64,000 nt of DNA from Trichodelitschia bisporula (lineage: Eukaryota): NCBI GenBank assembly GCA_010356995.1, contig ML996687.1:1427803-1491802 (forward strand). The letters run 5' to 3'. Made by a program: the position numbers and the translations under genes. The notes under the pieces were generated by a model. The model was not told where the DNA came from and did not search any database. It saw only the letters and a list, made by a program, of their open reading frames with translations. Of the stretch, positions 5,236-61,052 are shown piece by piece (position 1 is the stretch's first letter; each line of letters starts with the position of its first letter).

Positions 5236-5336
5236 TCAAGGGCTGATCGAAAAAGTCACGTCCACCCCGGCGACATGACCGCTGCCAAATTTTGGTGAAG
5301 GTAGGACCTGACTTTTTCGGGTACCGTAGCCCTTGA
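5236..5336. mobile_element. Palindromic ~100-bp dispersed element (MITE-like), copy 1
   Basis: Arms TCAAGGGCT..GAAAAAGTCA..GTCC and GGAC..TGACTTTTTC..AGCCCTTGA are complementary. Aligns, including the central loop, with 30539-30635 and 59897-59984. Mobility is inferred. Confidence 0.75.
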
Positions 5337-5805: not shown

Positions 5806-8585
5806 CTACACCCTCACCCCCCTAACCAACAACCACAACACAACCGGCACGACAACATTATCATTCCCCCCCGTAAGCACCGCCTCCATGAAACTCGCTC
5901 CACACGCCGCAACCCCCATCCTCCCTAGAACACCCAACCCAGACTTCCCCTCCTCCACCCATCCTCCCGCCCTAACCCACCACCACCCCGCCCCCAGCCC
6001 GATCACCACAGCCAGAGCAAACGCCGCACTCCCCTCAAGACTCTTCCCCCCCACCCAAGGCCACTTCCTCCGTCCCACGCGGCGGCCCACAAGACTCGCC
6101 GCCGCATCGCCCAAGCCCACGCACACCACGCCCGCTATCAACCCAAGATCCCTCCCCCTAACCTCCCATTCATCCCACGCCCCCTCCCCCACACCCCATT
6201 CCCGTCCCGCGAGCGAAAGCCAGACAGGCACCGCACACCCAACCAGCAAAAAAATATGACTCACAACCACCGGCCCCCTCCAGTCCCGGCCATCCGTATA
6301 CGGCGCCAGGAAGCGGGCGAGGGGCTTCGCGATCGGCGGGAGCGTGCTGGCACGGAGCAAATCGAGCAGTAGGAAAAGCACCAGCACGGCCCCAAGCGCC
6401 AAGCTCACGAACGCAGGGTCGATATAAGTGGTGGGGAGTAGCAGCGCAACAACCGTCCCATGGAACACCTTCCTCCTCGTATCAACCTCCACACGGGACG
6501 CGAGGCGCGTCACAATCCCCAGTGCCGCCGCGACAACGAGTATAAAATACCCACACATCCACAAGCGCGTCGTCCCCGCCCCGATCTCCTGACGGTACTG
6601 CTCGACCCACCCCCCCTCAACCTGCGTCTCCGCGTCCGGCAAAGGCGGCAAGGCGATCCACCCCCTAAGCCCGTGGTTAAACACCCAGAACCTGAACCCC
6701 CGGATATTGCCCAGAAAATACCCGATGAGCCAGCCGATCGGCTCGGCCCCACCCAGCGCACTCCTTTGAATAACCCATCTCGCCGGGCCGAGCGCAATAA
6801 GTCCCATGACCGCGTACACGTACACCGCGTACAGTACTTTCCTCCGCGTCGCTTGCGCGGGCGTAAGCACCAGGAGCGGGTTACCGCGGCGCCGCCGGCC
6901 CGTGCCCTCTTTCCCTTCCACGCGCACAGCCCCGGACGCGGGCATCGTGTGCCGCCTCCGTCTGCCCCCTGGGCCCTCGCCAAACACCGGCGGCAGCGCA
7001 TGCATGATCTCACTCCCCAGTCTACGCAGACTGGGCCTTGGCCTCCTCCGGCCCTCTTCGTCGTCGTCCGCGTCACTCTCCACGACCGGGCGCTTGCTCG
7101 GGCCCGTGCTGGCACGCGCGCGCCGGACGCCGTTCGCTAGCACGGCGAGGAAGAGTTGTCGCAGCCGCACCACTTGGCCTGCGCGGCGGAAGCGCCAGCG
7201 CGGAATGCGGGAGAGGGCGACGGCGGCGTGGAGCGCGGGCCCGGCGAGCAGGGTGAGGAGTAGGGCGGCGGGGATGAGGAGAGTGCTTAGGATGGTCGTT
7301 GGGGGGGTTGTAGCGAAGAGGGTAAGGTTAATGAGGGCGGTGGAGGTGAGGGCGAGTTCGGCGGGGAGGAGCGAAGTTGATGTTAGGGAGTGGAGGAAGG
7401 GGGTTAAAGAGGCGTGGAGGGGGTGGAGGAGGGTTAGGGTTTCGAGTGAGGGAGATGTGGGTGGTGTTTTAAGGGCATAAGGTGTTGGAGCGGAGATTTT
7501 GCTGAAGGTGTCGGTGTGAGCGGAGAGGATGGCTGGGAGGGTTGAGAGGAGCCAGTGTAGGTAGTAGCTTCCGTTCGCTGAATTCCAGGACCCGGGGATG
7601 AGTGCCGGTGGCAGTGCTGCGAGGCCGAGCACTATGTTCGCGAGGAGCGGTTCGGGGAATGTCCGGTGCAGCGAGAGCGCGACGAAGATGGGTAGGCAGA
7701 GCGGGTATATCAACGGCGCAGGATCAAAGACCGCAGGGACACGGATCGCGGCGCTCAGTCTCCTCGCTGCAGTACGCTTCCACGCATACGCAACCAAGCG
7801 AACGGGATATAGGAGACATAGCCCGACAACAATAGCGCCCGCGATGCGCAGCTCTGCTACACCGGTCAGCCCCTTCAACCCCAGATACGAAAGCACATAC
7901 CTCTCCCCCAAACCCCAACCCCCGCCTCGCGCACAACCAACCCGCCCACAAACCCCACAAGCGCAACCTCACACAGCCTCCGCACAACCTCCGCCCTCCG
8001 CCGCACCCTCCACCTTTCCTCCCCTTCATCCTCACTCAACGCCGTCGGCGTAAGCAGTGGGCTGACCCCTGTCCCAACGCCCTTCCCCGCATCTTGCGCA
8101 TCCCTCAGCCCCTTCCTCGGCCGCATAGCCGGCGCCGGGAGTGCGCGCACCAAACCCGTAAAACTATGTGCCGACCCGGGGCCAGAGGCATACCCTTGCG
8201 CACACGCCGACGCATACCCCGAGCCATAACCTCCAGGATTCAAATCGAAGCTCTCGTCATCCGCCTCCGTGCCCGATTCGCTAGGACTAAGCGCGCGTGT
8301 GCGGGTTGTGGGTAGTGGAGAGGGTTGGGGGCGCGAAGTGGGGAGGGTGAGGCGCTCGCCGTGCTTGCGGCGGTGGTAGAGCTGGGGTTTGCGGTCGGGG
8401 AGCGGAGTAGGGTCGGAGGACGTTGCCGGGGCGGGATATGCTGGATCTGCTTCCATCGTTGTAGCTTTTTGATGTCCTCTGGTCGTGAGTTCTGTATTCG
8501 GCGCGTTGCCTGCGTCCATGGCGGTGGAGGTGCCTTCAGCAAGGTCCCCTTGTGCATTCGAAGTGGGTAGCTGCGGCGGGACCAT
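5806..8585 (-). CDS. SEC59: Dolichol kinase (CTP transferase family)
   Basis: Multi-TM ORF with DTRRKVFHG, HIFLLVGCAVP, GDAAASLVGR, KSLEGS and DNVVVP. The N-terminal exon (SESGTEADDE) joins via intron 7900-7854 (GTATGT..CTGAC..CAG; a TAG acceptor 3 nt earlier is also in frame). Start codon uncertain. Confidence 0.9.
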
Positions 8586-30538: not shown

Positions 30539-30635
30539 CGGAGGGCTAATCGAAAAAGTCATGTCCCTACCCGCCGAGAGACCTCTGCCAAAATTCAGGT
30601 GGAGGGGCGGCATGACTTTTTCTGGTAGCCCTTGA
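30539..30635. mobile_element. Palindromic ~100-bp dispersed element, copy 2
   Basis: AGGGCTAATCGAAAAAGTCATGTCC..GGCATGACTTTTTCTGGTAGCCCTTGA. Similar to 5236-5336 along its whole length. Confidence 0.75.
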
Positions 30636-30864: not shown

Positions 30865-33344
30865 CTACATCATAAACCCCCCCTTATTAAACCCATCATC
30901 CTTCTTCCCCCCCCTTGTCGGCTTCTGCTGCGCCGCCTCATGCTTCCTCAACTCCTCCGGCACCCTCGAAATACTACTCTTCGACAGCATCTGCTTCAAA
31001 TCATACAACACATCCGTGTCCTCATTGCCGAGGAACGTAATCGACACACCACTCTTCCCCGCACGACCGGTACGACCAATGCGATGCGTGTACTGCTCGA
31101 TATTCGTCGCCATATTGAAGTTGACCACCAAGCTCACATCCGAAACATCGATACCGCGCCCAGCTAGGTCAGTGGCAACGAGCACATCCGCCTTCTTAGC
31201 ACGCAAGTCGGCGAGCGCCTCCTCGCGCTGGTCCTGCGTCTTGCTCCCGTGCAGCGTTACGGCCCGGAAGCCCATGTGTCGGATGTCCCGCGCCACGGCA
31301 TCGCAGTTCCGCTTGATGTTCACGAAGACAATGATCGGCGGGCCGAATTCGCGGCTCTGCAGTATCTCGCCCAGCCTCTTCTTGCGCTTGTCCTCGCCGG
31401 ACACAAACTCGACCCGCTGCTCCACCGTCTCCACCGCCTCGCCGACATTGCCAATGGTGACTATCGCCGGGCGGCGGAGGTACTTCCGCGCGATGCGCTC
31501 AACGGCGGACGGCATGGTGGCCGTGTACATCATAGTCTGGCGATAACGATCCTTCCCGCCAAGATGGCGCATCATAGCCGCCGCATTCTCCGCGTCCTCG
31601 GAGTCCGGCTTCTCGTTCTGCACCGGCAGCGCATCGAGGATTTTATTCACCTGCTCTTCGAAACCCATGTCGATCATCCGGTCCGCCTCGTCCATAATCA
31701 CGTAGCAGCACTGTCCGAGGACAAGCACACGCCGCTCGATACAATCTACGAGACGCCCGGGCGTCGCGATGACGATTTCGGCCCCGTCGCGCATTTGGTA
31801 GGATTGTTCTTCGATGCTGTGCCCGCCGACGATGGACACGCAGGTAAAGCCCAGCGGGGTCGCGAAGCGCTTGGCCTCGGCCTCGATCTGCTGCGCCAGT
31901 TCGCGGGTCGGGGCCAGGATAATAGCGTACGGGCCGTCGTTCTTCGTGAACTCGTTAAGCGGGTCAAGGTCCTGAATATAAACCAGCAACGGGAGCAAAA
32001 ACGCCGCCGTTTTACCCGACCCAGTGACTGCAATACCAATAAGATCCCGGCTTTGCAGCGCGATCGGGATGGCCGCACGCTGAATTGGCGTCGGCTCGTT
32101 GTATCCGACCGAGTAGACGATGTCGAGCAAGCGCTTGGGGAGTTTGGATTCCTGCCACGAGCGCATGGGATTTGGGATCGAGCCGCCCTTGGTGCTGATG
32201 TTGAAGTCCTCCTTGAAAATGCGCCAGTCGCGCTCGAGCATGTTCTCCAGCGGCTTAACGCTCCAGTGCTGGTCGAGCTGGGTGCGCCGACTCGTCGCCT
32301 TGCGCGCGCGCTCCATCTCCAGCATTTCGCGCGCACGGCTCGAGCCAGCCTCGTGATCGCGCTCCTCCAGCGCCTTGGCGTACTCAATCGCCCTATCCTC
32401 ACTCTCGCCAAACCCGCCCAGTTTCCCGCGGCCGAAGAACCCCGCCTCGACGCGGGCTTTGTAGATCGGATTGTAATCCACACTCGTGTCCTCCTCTACA
32501 TTCCACTCGAAATTGAACTTCTTCTCCGTGGTTCGTCGCCGCTTTTTCTTCGCTGAAAAGGTGCTCACGGTCTGGTCGGCCCCCATGTATCGCTGGCGGA
32601 TCAGCGTCGCCTCCGTGTCCTCTGCCCCACGCTTCGCCCCCTGCGTGATGTTTGGACCTGTAATCGCGACGGCTTTAGGTGGTGGAGGCGGCATCATGTC
32701 GTACCCGCGGTTGTGCTGTTCCCGCTGTCCGCGCATCGACGACGGCCCAGTGGGCACGTCGCGGTCGCGCTGGCTGCGCGGACCTGTCGGTATATCGCGC
32801 CTCGACGAACCTCGCTCATCTGGGTACCGCGTGTGGACATTCCTGATCGTGCCATTGGGGAGCACGCCGTTGGACTGCGGCGGGGGCGGGGGGGCAGAGG
32901 CGGTGGCTGTAGCGGTGGCACGTTTCTGGGCCTCGACTTCCTTTGCGCGTTTCTCAAGTGCAAGTCTTTCTCGCTCCGCTTTGGAGAGGAATTTAGGCTG
33001 TTATGTGTCAGTACGGGGATCGGGACTAGAGGCGTGAACGGGACGTTGAGAACGGCGGGTGGGCATACCTTTTTCGCGGCTTCGTCGGCCTCGCGCTTCT
33101 TCTTTAGCAGATCTTCGATGCTGAGGGGTGTCTTCTTTGGCGCTGTGTTCCAGCCTCGTTTCTTAGGTGGTGCGGGAGCATCGTCTGGCGGAGGAGGGGG
33201 GGCGTCTGATGATGGGGGGGGTGCGGGTGGGAGGTCTGAGGGCGGCGGAGGAGGGAGTGGGTCTGAAGGCGGAGGAGGGAGGGCATCTGGCGGGGGAGGA
33301 GGGGGGGTCGAGCCGTTTAGGCCGTTGCTGTGATGGCCGTTCAT
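30865..33344 (-). CDS. PRP28: Pre-mRNA splicing DEAD-box helicase Prp28
   Basis: Motifs TGSGKT, PTRELA, DEAD, HRIGRTGRAG, plus Prp28-type KFNFEW and RDWRIFKEDFNI. Intron 33068-32998 gives K|PKFLSKAERE. Confidence 0.96.
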
Positions 33345-39991: not shown

Positions 39992-40360
39992 GGGGGATGA
40001 TGTGATGGGAGCAACGGCTCAATACGCGCTGCAGGGCAGCTGTAAACCTGAAGATTGAAGTGAAGACAAAGAGGGAAAAAGAGTCTCTGACTCTCGACAC
40101 TTAGATACACGATGCCAAGTATCCCCCTTTGCTCCTTCCTTCTATCATGCGCTCATTACATCATGTCTCTTAGTATGCTCCTTCCTGACAGCAGTGCTCC
40201 TTCCATATCTACATCAGCCGATGATTACGCTGACTCTTCATATATACCTCTCGCTATCGGTCATGAAAGGCCGGCTTCCCCATCCATTTGCGGCGGCGTC
40301 AGCAAGGAATGAGTTCAGACCGCGTAATACTGAAATTTTATGTATCCGGCTTCGGGTGTG

Positions 40361-40597
40361 CTTGGTAACACGACCTTCGAAGTTCTCGGTTACCCGGCTC
40401 CATTTACTTGGCTTACCCGGCTCTCCAGACACTCGGTTACCCGGCTCCGTCCATGCCCGCTTACCCGGCCATATATGACTCGGTTACCCGGCTCTTCAAC
40501 ACGTCCAGTTACCCGACTCCATGTGCTCGCTTACCTGGCTTTACAAGTCCTCAGTTACCCGGCCGCGTATACACTCAGTTACCCAGCTCTCCCTCGC
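40361..40597 (+). repeat. Array 1: ten ~24-bp units with core CTCGGTTACCCGGC and variable ~9-nt spacers
   Basis: Unit lengths 22-25 nt; seven exact TTACCCG. Confidence 0.92.
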
Positions 40598-56218: not shown

Positions 56219-56303
56219 GCCTGGGTAGCTCAATCGGTAGAGCGTGTGACTCTTACACCAAGGGATTATCTCAAGGTCGCGGGTTCGAGCCCCGCCTCGG
56301 GCT
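56219..56303 (+). tRNA. tRNA-Lys (CTT) with 12-nt intron (56256-56267)
   Basis: Cloverleaf: acceptor GCCTGGG/CTCGGGC, A-box TAGCTCAATCGG, anticodon CTT at 56252-56254, B-box GGTTCGAGCC. The intron sits at the canonical 37/38 position. Confidence 0.88.
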
Positions 56304-57263: not shown

Positions 57264-57507
57264 TGCCCGGGAAGTCGGGTAACCGTCTACTTTCACAGCT
57301 GAGTACTAAAGCGCTTTTAAAGCCGGACAACTGACCACTGCTAGAGATCGGGTAACCGAGACCATCCAGAAGCCGTCCTGCCGCATCGTCGGGAAACGGG
57401 ATGACCGAGCAGATACGGGGGCCGGGTAACCTAGTTCTTCCAGGATCGGGTAACTGAGTCCGTACGGAACCGGGTGATACGAACCCGTCCAAAGCCAGGC
57501 AACCAGC
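57264..57507 (-). repeat. Array 2: ten ~24-bp units of the same CTCGGTTACCCG family, inverted relative to array 1
   Basis: CGGGTAAC occurs at 57276, 57349, 57423 and 57447, with more degenerate units in 24-25 nt register. Confidence 0.85.
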
Positions 57508-59628: not shown

Positions 59629-61052
59629 CTACCCCCGCTGCCCCCTCGCCTTCGCCTTCCGCCGCCGAACCTCGGCGTTGGCATTCGGCGCCGCCGCACC
59701 ATCTAGCGCCGCGTCCTCCTCGTCTTCAGGCACGTCCGCGTACACCGGCTCCTCCACGTTCTGGCCGAGCAGGCGGCCGACGGTGCTGCGGTACATGAGG
59801 CCGGGTAGCTTGAACAGCACGGTGTCGCGGATGGTCGGCTGAGAGATTTCGTTTTCCTGATCCGCGTTAGCATAATCCTTTACATGGTCCTATGGTTCAA
59901 GGGCTCCCGAAAATGCCATGTCGCCTCAACCCTGCCAGACTCTTGCAGGAGGGGGATGACATGACCTTTTCAGGTCGCTCTTGGCGGTACGTACATCAAG
60001 CAGAAACTCATGCGTCTGCCCATCCTGCGTCTCCTCCTCGAGGAACACATTCCCAACGCTGTCCACAATGAGCACCTTCCCGTTCTGCGCAGTGACGCGC
60101 TTCTTCGCGCCCTGCGGTCCGGTAGCAGGGGCCTCGGTCTCGACGGGCGTGCTGCTGCCCTCTTTCTTCGCCGCCGCTGACTTGCGCGGGTTCTTGGCGG
60201 CCTTGCGGCTCTCGCGCTCCTGCAGGCGCTTCTGCCGGCGATTCCACGCAACCGCCTCGCCCTCGCTCGCCGGCGGGGTGTCGTAGCCCGTCGCAGCTGC
60301 AGAGGTAGCGTCGACGCCCGGGATACCCGCAATGCCGCTCTCGTCGCCCCACGCCATGCGGCGCGCATTGCGGATATACGCAGACACAAACGAGCGCTGA
60401 CGGCGCCAGGAAACGTACAGCGCCGCATAATGCGCCACACCGCCCATGACCACAACGAGCCCGATCAGCACACTCCCAATCCCCGGGCGGAAACGCTCAT
60501 AATAATACCCCGTGCCGCGCCAAGCCGGAAACCCATGCTTGAGAAAGTAATCATAGCGCTCCCTATTCTCGCCGCGGAGCACATTGGCCACGGCGCTGAG
60601 GCGCGCGTACCTATCTTCGGCGGCCTTGTGGGCGGCGGCAATTTCGCGTTGGGTGGGTTTCTTGTGCACGATGGGTTTGCCGGTAGGTTTTTGGCCGGGG
60701 GGAGGTTTACCGTAGTTGGCGATGAAGGATTGGCGGGCTTTGTCTGGGTGCAGGCGGGCGGAGAGACGCCGGTAGGCGCGGTTTATGTCGTCTTGCGATG
60801 CGGAGGGCGGGACGCCGATGAAGGTGTAGAAGGTGCTGTTTGGGCCCTGGTCGGCTTTGAGGGCGTCGTTGAGTTGGAAGATTTCGTGGTCTGGGAGGGG
60901 GGGGAGGGTTAGCTGACGAATCTACAATGGCACACCTACAATTGCACCGGGGTACAGTCGAGGACACGAAGTGACGTACCTTCTTTGGTCCACGCAGCCG
61001 TGAACGAGGTGAAGAACACCAGAACGGCGGTGAGAAAGGCCAGGGACTTCAT
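59629..61052 (-). CDS. ER membrane DnaJ-domain protein (Erj5-like)
   Basis: Signal peptide, WTKEDHEIF, HPD motif, RERYDYFLKHGFPAWRGTGYYY, TM helix; introns 60979-60891 and 59994-59857. Confidence 0.92.
59897..59984. mobile_element. Palindromic dispersed element, copy 3, inside DnaJ intron 2
   Basis: TCAAGGGCTCCCGAAAATGCCATGTC..GACATGACCTTTTCAGGTCGCTCTTG; about 42-bp imperfect stem. Confidence 0.72.

Follow-up and report, generated by a model that had tools for sequence, protein, structure and literature searches.

The palindromic elements and their surroundings

The window, a stretch of 64,000 nucleotides of Trichodelitschia bisporula DNA (contig ML996687.1, positions 1,427,803 to 1,491,802), contains three related palindromes, two of them between genes and one in an intron. 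Their features, as obtained from alignment, folding and predicted splice signals, are as follows.

5236..5336 (+), copy 1, probable decayed MITE of the 96-bp subfamily A, intergenic (alignment and folding)
5236..5263 (+), left TIR of copy 1, family motif CCAAGGGCY-N4-GAAAAAGTCRTG, 34 bits
5304..5336 (-), right TIR of copy 1, lengthened by a 5-nt insertion
30539..30635 (+), copy 2, probable decayed 97-bp MITE of the 96-bp subfamily A, intergenic
59897..59984 (+), copy 3, 88 bp (87-bp length class), more decayed than copies 1 and 2, intronic
59858..59994 (-), predicted intron around copy 3, in a DnaJ-domain gene, with 5' and 3' splice sites and a branch point

The first-pass annotation had placed three stem-loop palindromes of one family at these positions, and all three are present there. 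In single-copy nhmmer searches within the window each copy found the others (copy 1 against copy 2, E=4e-10; copy 3 against copy 2, E=8e-5; copy 3 against copy 1, E=0.014), and a profile made from the three gave no fourth match at E<0.5 in the window. For the score of the left TIR of copy 1, the reversed-sequence control returned nothing at 12 bits. Each copy had negative folding z-scores on both strands (copies 1, 2 and 3: -5.1, -4.4 and -2.5 on the + strand; -5.4, -2.9 and -2.8 on the - strand); they fold on either strand because they are DNA palindromes. The 5-nt insertion described for the right arm of copy 1 was seen as well. The terminus, previously given as TCAAGGG, is CCAAGGG in the family, and copy 3 (88 bp) fits every subfamily consensus poorly. 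The common + orientation holds for the three window copies but not beyond them: with copy 2 as query, 17 full-length loci were found in the genome, 9 on the + and 8 on the - strand, and the shared orientation in the window is chance.

Copy 1 lies 470 bp from the stop of the SEC59-like ORF 5806-7968(-), and copy 2 lies 230 bp from the stop of ORF 30865-33000(-), both distances as annotated. The product of the latter is a DEAD-box/DDX23 protein (Pfam), which fits the name PRP28. The name SEC59 stands in part: the C-terminus of ORF 5806-7968(-) resembles dolichol kinase SEC59, on a motif that we take to be typical of this kinase, and the ORF has no Pfam match. The intron around copy 3 was read from predicted splice signals, and a DnaJ domain (Pfam) is found in ORF 59926-60921(-).

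Two further features of the window were recorded. An Rfam tRNA match (53 bits, 85 nt) at 56219-56303 (+), perhaps intron-containing, was missed by ARAGORN in bacterial mode. A motif around TTACCCGG occurs in tandem at 40357-40590 and inverted at 57418-57458 (families D17, I11 and I14); it is unrelated to the TIR described here.

A dispersed family in the host genome

The host assembly comprises 25.8 Mb in 44 contigs. The signature of the family is a 28-bp TIR common to all paired copies, and three patterns of this TIR gave 112, 150 and 49 matches in the genome against 0, 1 and 0 in reversed controls. The loci examined were part of these matches together with 20 arbitrary 10-kb stretches. A weight-matrix scan of the fetched loci yielded 139 paired elements (60-200 bp) and 28 unpaired TIRs; 8 of the 139 were dropped for shared flanks, leaving 131 distinct copies, in keeping with the earlier suggestion that the family might be high-copy. 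Six loci in the 200-kb sample correspond to about 770 copies genome-wide (95% range 280-1,700). The copies avoid long stop-free frames (250 or more codons), which contained 5 of the 131 copies against 252 of 600 random windows.

Average divergence from the subfamily consensus is 12-22%, no copy being closer than 5%, so the family is old. Clustering gave nine clusters of 3-25 copies, each with a narrow range of lengths. Short (84-140 bp), non-coding, bounded by a 28-bp TIR, dispersed and divided into subfamilies of uniform size, the elements have the properties by which MITEs are recognised. An old, non-autonomous MITE family, as the first-pass annotation had proposed, agrees with the 112 TIR matches against none in the control, with the divergence, with a target duplication at the level of the family, and with a transposase-bearing element elsewhere that has the same TIR (see below). 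It is quite probable that the three palindromes of the window are decayed non-autonomous DNA transposons (MITEs), of apparent Tc1-type parentage and with a GG-N-CC target. The family is ordinary as a class, unusual in its target and possibly unusual in the spacing of its lengths.

Target site and duplication

The aligned flanks showed a symmetric target, A-n-G-G-N-C-C-n-T, with G/C at 69% at positions +/-1 and 52% at +/-2, and A/T at 45% at +/-4. TA flanks were rare (1 left and 7 right among 131 copies), and neither a 5-bp GGNCC nor a 2-bp duplication left a signal in the aligned flanks. The centre base, which can be any base, matched between the two sides in 67 of the 108 copies with well-kept ends (27 expected); 23 of the 131 copies were dropped from this test as poorly ended, and other cut-offs dropped 7 and 59. 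Positions +/-1 co-varied between the inner and the outer copy (Fisher p=6e-5, with comparable results at the other two cut-offs) and positions +/-2 did not (p=0.61). With the centre duplicated and +/-1 but not +/-2 co-varying, a 3-bp GNC duplication is favoured: the target was probably cut with a 3-nt stagger, and the element proper would be CAAGGG...CCCTTG.

Two counts run counter to GNC. C occurs more often at the inner than at the outer position (165 against 148 of 216 half-sites, an excess for which the search patterns partly select), and doubly non-consensus sites were identical in 13 of 28 cases (p=0.10; 0.01-0.02 at two other cut-offs). A duplication of the centre base alone, by 1 bp, nevertheless seems rather unlikely. 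No empty orthologous site was seen, and the duplication is therefore deduced from old copies only. The earlier remark that there was no clear target duplication is right for the window, where none of the three copies keeps a clean one, and does not extend to the family, which overall does.

On the 3-bp reading, the enzyme would cut its target with a 3-nt stagger and so duplicate GNC, and an element end together with its duplication would rebuild GG-N-CC, that is, a new target. At four loci two elements lie back to back with one base between them, perhaps because the rebuilt GG-N-CC offered a target.

L099:2398-2654, back-to-back elements, one-base gap
L230:1873-2131, back-to-back elements, one-base gap
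L206:2313-2315, back-to-back elements, one-base gap
L052:2473-2475, back-to-back elements, one-base gap

Elements with the same TIR in a metagenome

A scan of metagenome sequences with the TIR gave four contigs. The search for an autonomous element with the same termini, which the first-pass annotation had recommended, led to a 1,672-bp element from another fungus (L131:684-2355) with a damaged Tc1-like transposase. Its 39-nt arms are 95% complementary, its composition is of the RIP type, and its junctions read GGT/CC...GG/TCC, i.e. GG-T-CC on both sides. The minus strand contains one long frame with 29 internal stops, a weak DDE_3 match (E=0.006) and weak HTH matches. An exhaustive protein search found 812 relatives of this frame, among them strong full-length matches (best E=3e-46) and one protein named as a Tc1-like transposase; a word-index search with the damaged frame found nothing. 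The frame takes about 1.33 of the 1.67 kb between the near-perfect TIRs, which leaves no other coding room in the element. The frame is not a nested insert: the inner 31-nt inverted repeat of L131 lacks flanking TA, and the deletion points of L128 (see below) lie elsewhere.

A second element (L128:3448-3732, 285 bp) is an internal deletion of this same element, with junctions GGC/CC...GG/CCC; its deletion breaks inside the start of the frame, off any inner element boundary. The apparent link between the MITE family and a transposase runs through one damaged full-size element, L131. In the prokaryote and viral collections the TIR pattern gave 3 and 1 solo matches, with neither a partner TIR nor a transposase, and these were treated as chance.

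A second RIP-damaged Tc1-like element (L130:189-2230, 2.04 kb) was also noted, with different, 72-nt inverted arms. It adjoins the right end of a family-type element, and its own ends are GG-A-CC and GG-T-CC, so that the centre base is inverted and not duplicated.

A candidate transposase gene in the host genome

The host genome gave one DDE_3 match, and three other queries reached the same ORF (here the C4 ORF).

G000:C4:1481857-1483002 (= L132:754-1899), Tc1-like ORF, 381 aa, intact, single-copy

Its matches to DDE_3 (E=1e-5) and HTH_Tnp_Tc3_2 (E=4e-4) are both under the curated cut-off. The catalytic spacing, counted by hand, is DD34E, compared with mostly 37-39 in its relatives, and the ORF bears no RIP signature. 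Dothideomycetes and other ascomycetes contain 57 relatives that are 25-50% identical to it; no intact relatives of the transposase were found in viral contigs or prokaryote genomes, and no transposase relics besides the C4 ORF in the fetched loci of the host. The transposase family shares the motifs KCxAC, FSDEVHF and EEDGD, and among solved structures its profile came nearest to the Sleeping Beauty transposase (SB100X, E=3e-31).

A decayed MITE of the 129-bp class begins 110 bp past the stop of the C4 ORF. A TIR-like site lies 190 bp before its start, with a score of 7.4 bits (12 such sites per 399,000 null positions), and neither candidate pair of ends around the ORF showed a duplication. 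The ORF and the L131 frame are 22% identical over 134 residues, and the two proteins fall in different subclades in a tree of the proteins collected here; the C4 ORF is therefore a candidate parent. We see even chances that it is the stranded parent of the MITEs or a kept relative of that parent.

Two runs from one sample cover the C4 ORF as a separate contig. These runs are RNA by guess; their contigs are spliced at the introns of the neighbouring genes. They do not cover the flanking MITE, which says nothing either way. As an observation in its own right, the ORF is intact, single-copy and matched by RNA-type contigs, but the ends around it are decayed; it is possible that it is a domesticated transposase.

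Alternatives to the probable Tc1-like MITE family

The first-pass annotation had also allowed for a dispersed structured RNA. That the palindromes are such RNAs, or cis-regulatory hairpins kept by selection on the fold, fits the strong folds of the window copies and the double changes in the arms, of which there were 80 against about 42 by chance (about twofold), with 49 of the 80 keeping the pairing (36 of the 131 copies fitted no consensus and were dropped). The excess could, however, stem from homogenisation of the founder TIRs or from arm-to-arm repair, and 38 of the 49 compensated changes fall at TIR positions that had been scored as differing from one subfamily to another. Among the 24 copies of the largest tight subfamily there were 9 double changes against 6.1 expected, 3 of them compensated. 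Single changes compatible with G-U pairing were equally frequent on both strands (144 and 144), so the covariation check gave no strand-specific signal for RNA structure in the arms; RNAalifold found no consensus pair in a 27-row alignment, and the Rfam scan of the window returned the tRNA only and no match on the three copies. Given also the mixed orientation, and a target duplication and a transposase-bearing relative that only a transposon explains, we consider a selected RNA fold very improbable.

A different enzyme might have moved the elements, with the Tc1-like frames as passengers or neighbours: a tyrosine recombinase (Crypton- or Starship-like) acting at a GG-N-CC core, or an enzyme of the PIF/Harbinger group with a 3-bp duplication. 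The core is indeed palindromic, without TA and of odd length, and the element ends rebuild the target. Against this, the Tc1-like frame of L131 leaves no space between the TIRs for another coding sequence, the deletion in L128 starts within the frame and not at the boundary of an inner element, and a family copy abuts the sole Tc1-like ORF found in the host genome. Overall, a mover of another kind appears improbable, and a MITE family with a Tc1-like parent is the preferred reading. The tyrosine recombinase was dropped as a candidate, the sole full-size element, L131, encoding a DDE protein.

Length classes

Counted with the outer C and G included, the lengths of the 139 copies fell into six groups: 84-90 bp (67 copies), 94-102 (40), 105-112 (11), 115-117 (3), 127-132 (16) and 137-140 (2). 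The gaps between them (91-93, 103-104, 113-114, 118-126 and 133-136 bp) were empty. The peaks, at about 87, 96, 109, 117, 129 and 138 bp, are some 10.5 bp apart; the best period was 10.6 bp, and a ladder fit gave 10.3 bp per step. Subfamily consensus lengths obtained from clustering were 87, 96, 109 and 129 bp. These consensuses are homologous: they have an inner motif in common, around which indels of 9, 22 and 20 bp separate them, and in one of the steps some 21 bp beside the TIR are duplicated. The steps are uneven, with 9 bp from 87 to 96 and 13 bp from 96 to 109.

As copies inherit their length class, the effective sample is 4-6 lengths. With the period fixed at 10.5 bp, the class-level p was 0.03-0.04 for the four well-supported classes and 0.003-0.009 once the two rare classes (117 and 138) were counted too; letting the period vary gave 0.04. 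The null range for this test was set after the data had been seen, and the periodicity is suggestive only.

Since the elements are shorter than the DNA persistence length of about 150 bp, both TIRs might enter one transpososome only when in helical phase, and only lengths near whole helical turns (83-85, 94, 107, 115, 127 and 136 bp, duplication excluded) would then have been amplified. We lean slightly towards helical phasing as the cause of the ladder. The competing view, to which we give somewhat less than an even chance, is one of historical accident, in which a few founder subfamilies of the same Tc1-like parent acquired chance indels and kept their lengths. Only four distinct lengths are well supported, with p=0.03-0.04; the subfamilies are homologous, so that same-length pairs (two at 87 and two at 96 bp) are not independent; and the step of about 21 bp beside the TIR could reflect local repeat structure. 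An accident would, on the other hand, have to bring the three well-supported indels (9, 22 and 20 bp) near one or two helical turns and place the rare 115-117 and 137-140-bp copies on the same ladder of 10.3 bp per step, and 10.5 bp is the physical expectation, with a precedent in the IESs of Paramecium (PMC3464196). Phasing of the two TIRs on the helix thus stays the slightly preferred explanation.

Comparison with known systems

Within the Tc1 family, mimp (the MITE of impala) and Guest are natural points of comparison. Tc1 and impala carry an A-rich core some 12-15 bp in from the end, and so do the Trichodelitschia MITEs. Duplications of 3 bp occur among ITm members, namely Tc4/Tc5 (TNA), TBE1 (TNT) and Zator (TWA), and in the PHIS groups NuwaI, NuwaII and Pangu. 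The present family would resemble all of these in that the duplication, probably of 3 bp and so odd in length, has a palindromic target around it; theirs, however, start with T, C or A around W or N in an AT-rich context, whereas here the sequence would be G-N-C.

Duplication of TA is a trait given for the IS630/Tc1/mariner group, whose Tc1 family includes impala (DD37E) and Sleeping Beauty (PMC7325037, PMC5630946). Members of that family have a single ORF of 350-470 aa with an HTH region and a DD34-38E domain, TIRs of about 30 bp and a size of 1.3-1.7 kb (PMC7325037, PMC5630946), and the coding elements described here are built alike. The C4 ORF has the features of a Tc1 protein, i.e. a DDE_3-type transposase domain, a DD(34-38)E spacing and an N-terminal HTH. 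Unlike in canonical Tc1, the target is GG-N-CC, as in both complete metagenome elements, the ends are C(C)AAGGG, and TA is not what is duplicated; for this last reason we do not class the family as canonical Tc1, although it behaves as a Tc1/mariner MITE would. The motifs KCxAC, FSDEVHF and EEDGD are absent from the portion of the PMC7325037 supplement covered here.

The MITEs EFT-3m to EFT-30m of Epichloe festucae are ancient, 60-90% alike and present in hundreds of copies, with subfamilies that share the TIR only and parents destroyed by RIP; EFT-25m and EFT-29m are 81-83 bp long with TIRs of 24-25 bp (PMC3227409). The Trichodelitschia family is likewise short, ancient, numerous and bounded by TIRs. 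The EFT families duplicate TA, AT, TWY, or 8 or 9 bp (Table 2 of PMC3227409) and not GNC or 1 bp, and are set apart by this description; the sections of that paper used here contain no length ladder. In Paramecium, 45,000 IESs are excised in each generation by a domesticated piggyBac enzyme; IES lengths below 150 bp peak every 10 bp or so, which Arnaiz et al. ascribed to a DNA-loop constraint on a transpososome-like complex, citing helical-twist experiments on IS50 and IS1 (PMC3464196). The MITEs share with these IESs an origin in transposons, a size below 150 bp and length peaks about every 10 bp; their ladder differs in that it would reflect selection on the amplification of selfish subfamilies, and in being drawn from 4-6 lengths.

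A literature search, with most subscription journals and Repbase Reports outside it, found no relevant paper on the TIR string (among the matches listed), on a non-TA target of a fungal Tc1 element or on a GNC/3-bp or 1-bp duplication, nor, again with most subscription journals outside it, on length periodicity in MITEs or on hupfer. The parts of PMC5751038 and PMC5576322 at hand contain nothing on a GG-N-CC target. What appears new here is the GG-N-CC target with duplication of its centre and, suggestively, the clustering of lengths; the family is set apart from the published ones compared above by their descriptions.

The boldest reading, which we advance as tentative, is that a widespread but undescribed clade of ascomycete Tc1-like transposases (KCxAC/FSDEVHF) no longer follows the TA rule and instead duplicates GNC in GG-N-CC, that its MITEs amount to a helical-twist experiment of nature in which only those of about 8, 9, 10, 11, 12 and 13 turns were amplified, and that one intact, transcribed transposase gene remains. 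If so, a Tc1-like enzyme with a preference for GC-rich sites would demonstrate how the choice of target and the stagger of the cut can shift inside the group, and it would explain how such MITEs escape finders keyed to TA or TWA flanks. Duplication of TA limits the insertion of Sleeping Beauty-type vectors, and a GC-rich preference could widen the toolbox. The ladder, if real, would be genomic evidence that end-to-end looping limits the amplification of miniature elements; bacterial IS elements have been shown to be under this constraint, and for the IESs of ciliates it has been deduced. Should neither the target nor the lengths hold, what is left is an ordinary fossil MITE family.

Longer and paired elements

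Longer copies, of about 300-315 bp, also occur in the host genome (L206:1999-2313 and L052:1869-2166). They carry this TIR, their left junctions read GG-N-CC, and no coding relic was found in them; related ends occur at L109:2501, L196:1999 and L060:1525. Besides the back-to-back elements, further pairs lie 17-75 bp apart at L002, L007, L008, L011, L045, L053, L055 and L114. The spacer between the pair members is an identical 43 bp in L002 and L008, and such pairs may have moved or been copied as one unit. Six copies of 86-88 bp on several contigs (L153, L162, L212, L215, L216 and L218) have common flanks on both sides and were therefore multiplied inside a larger repeat.
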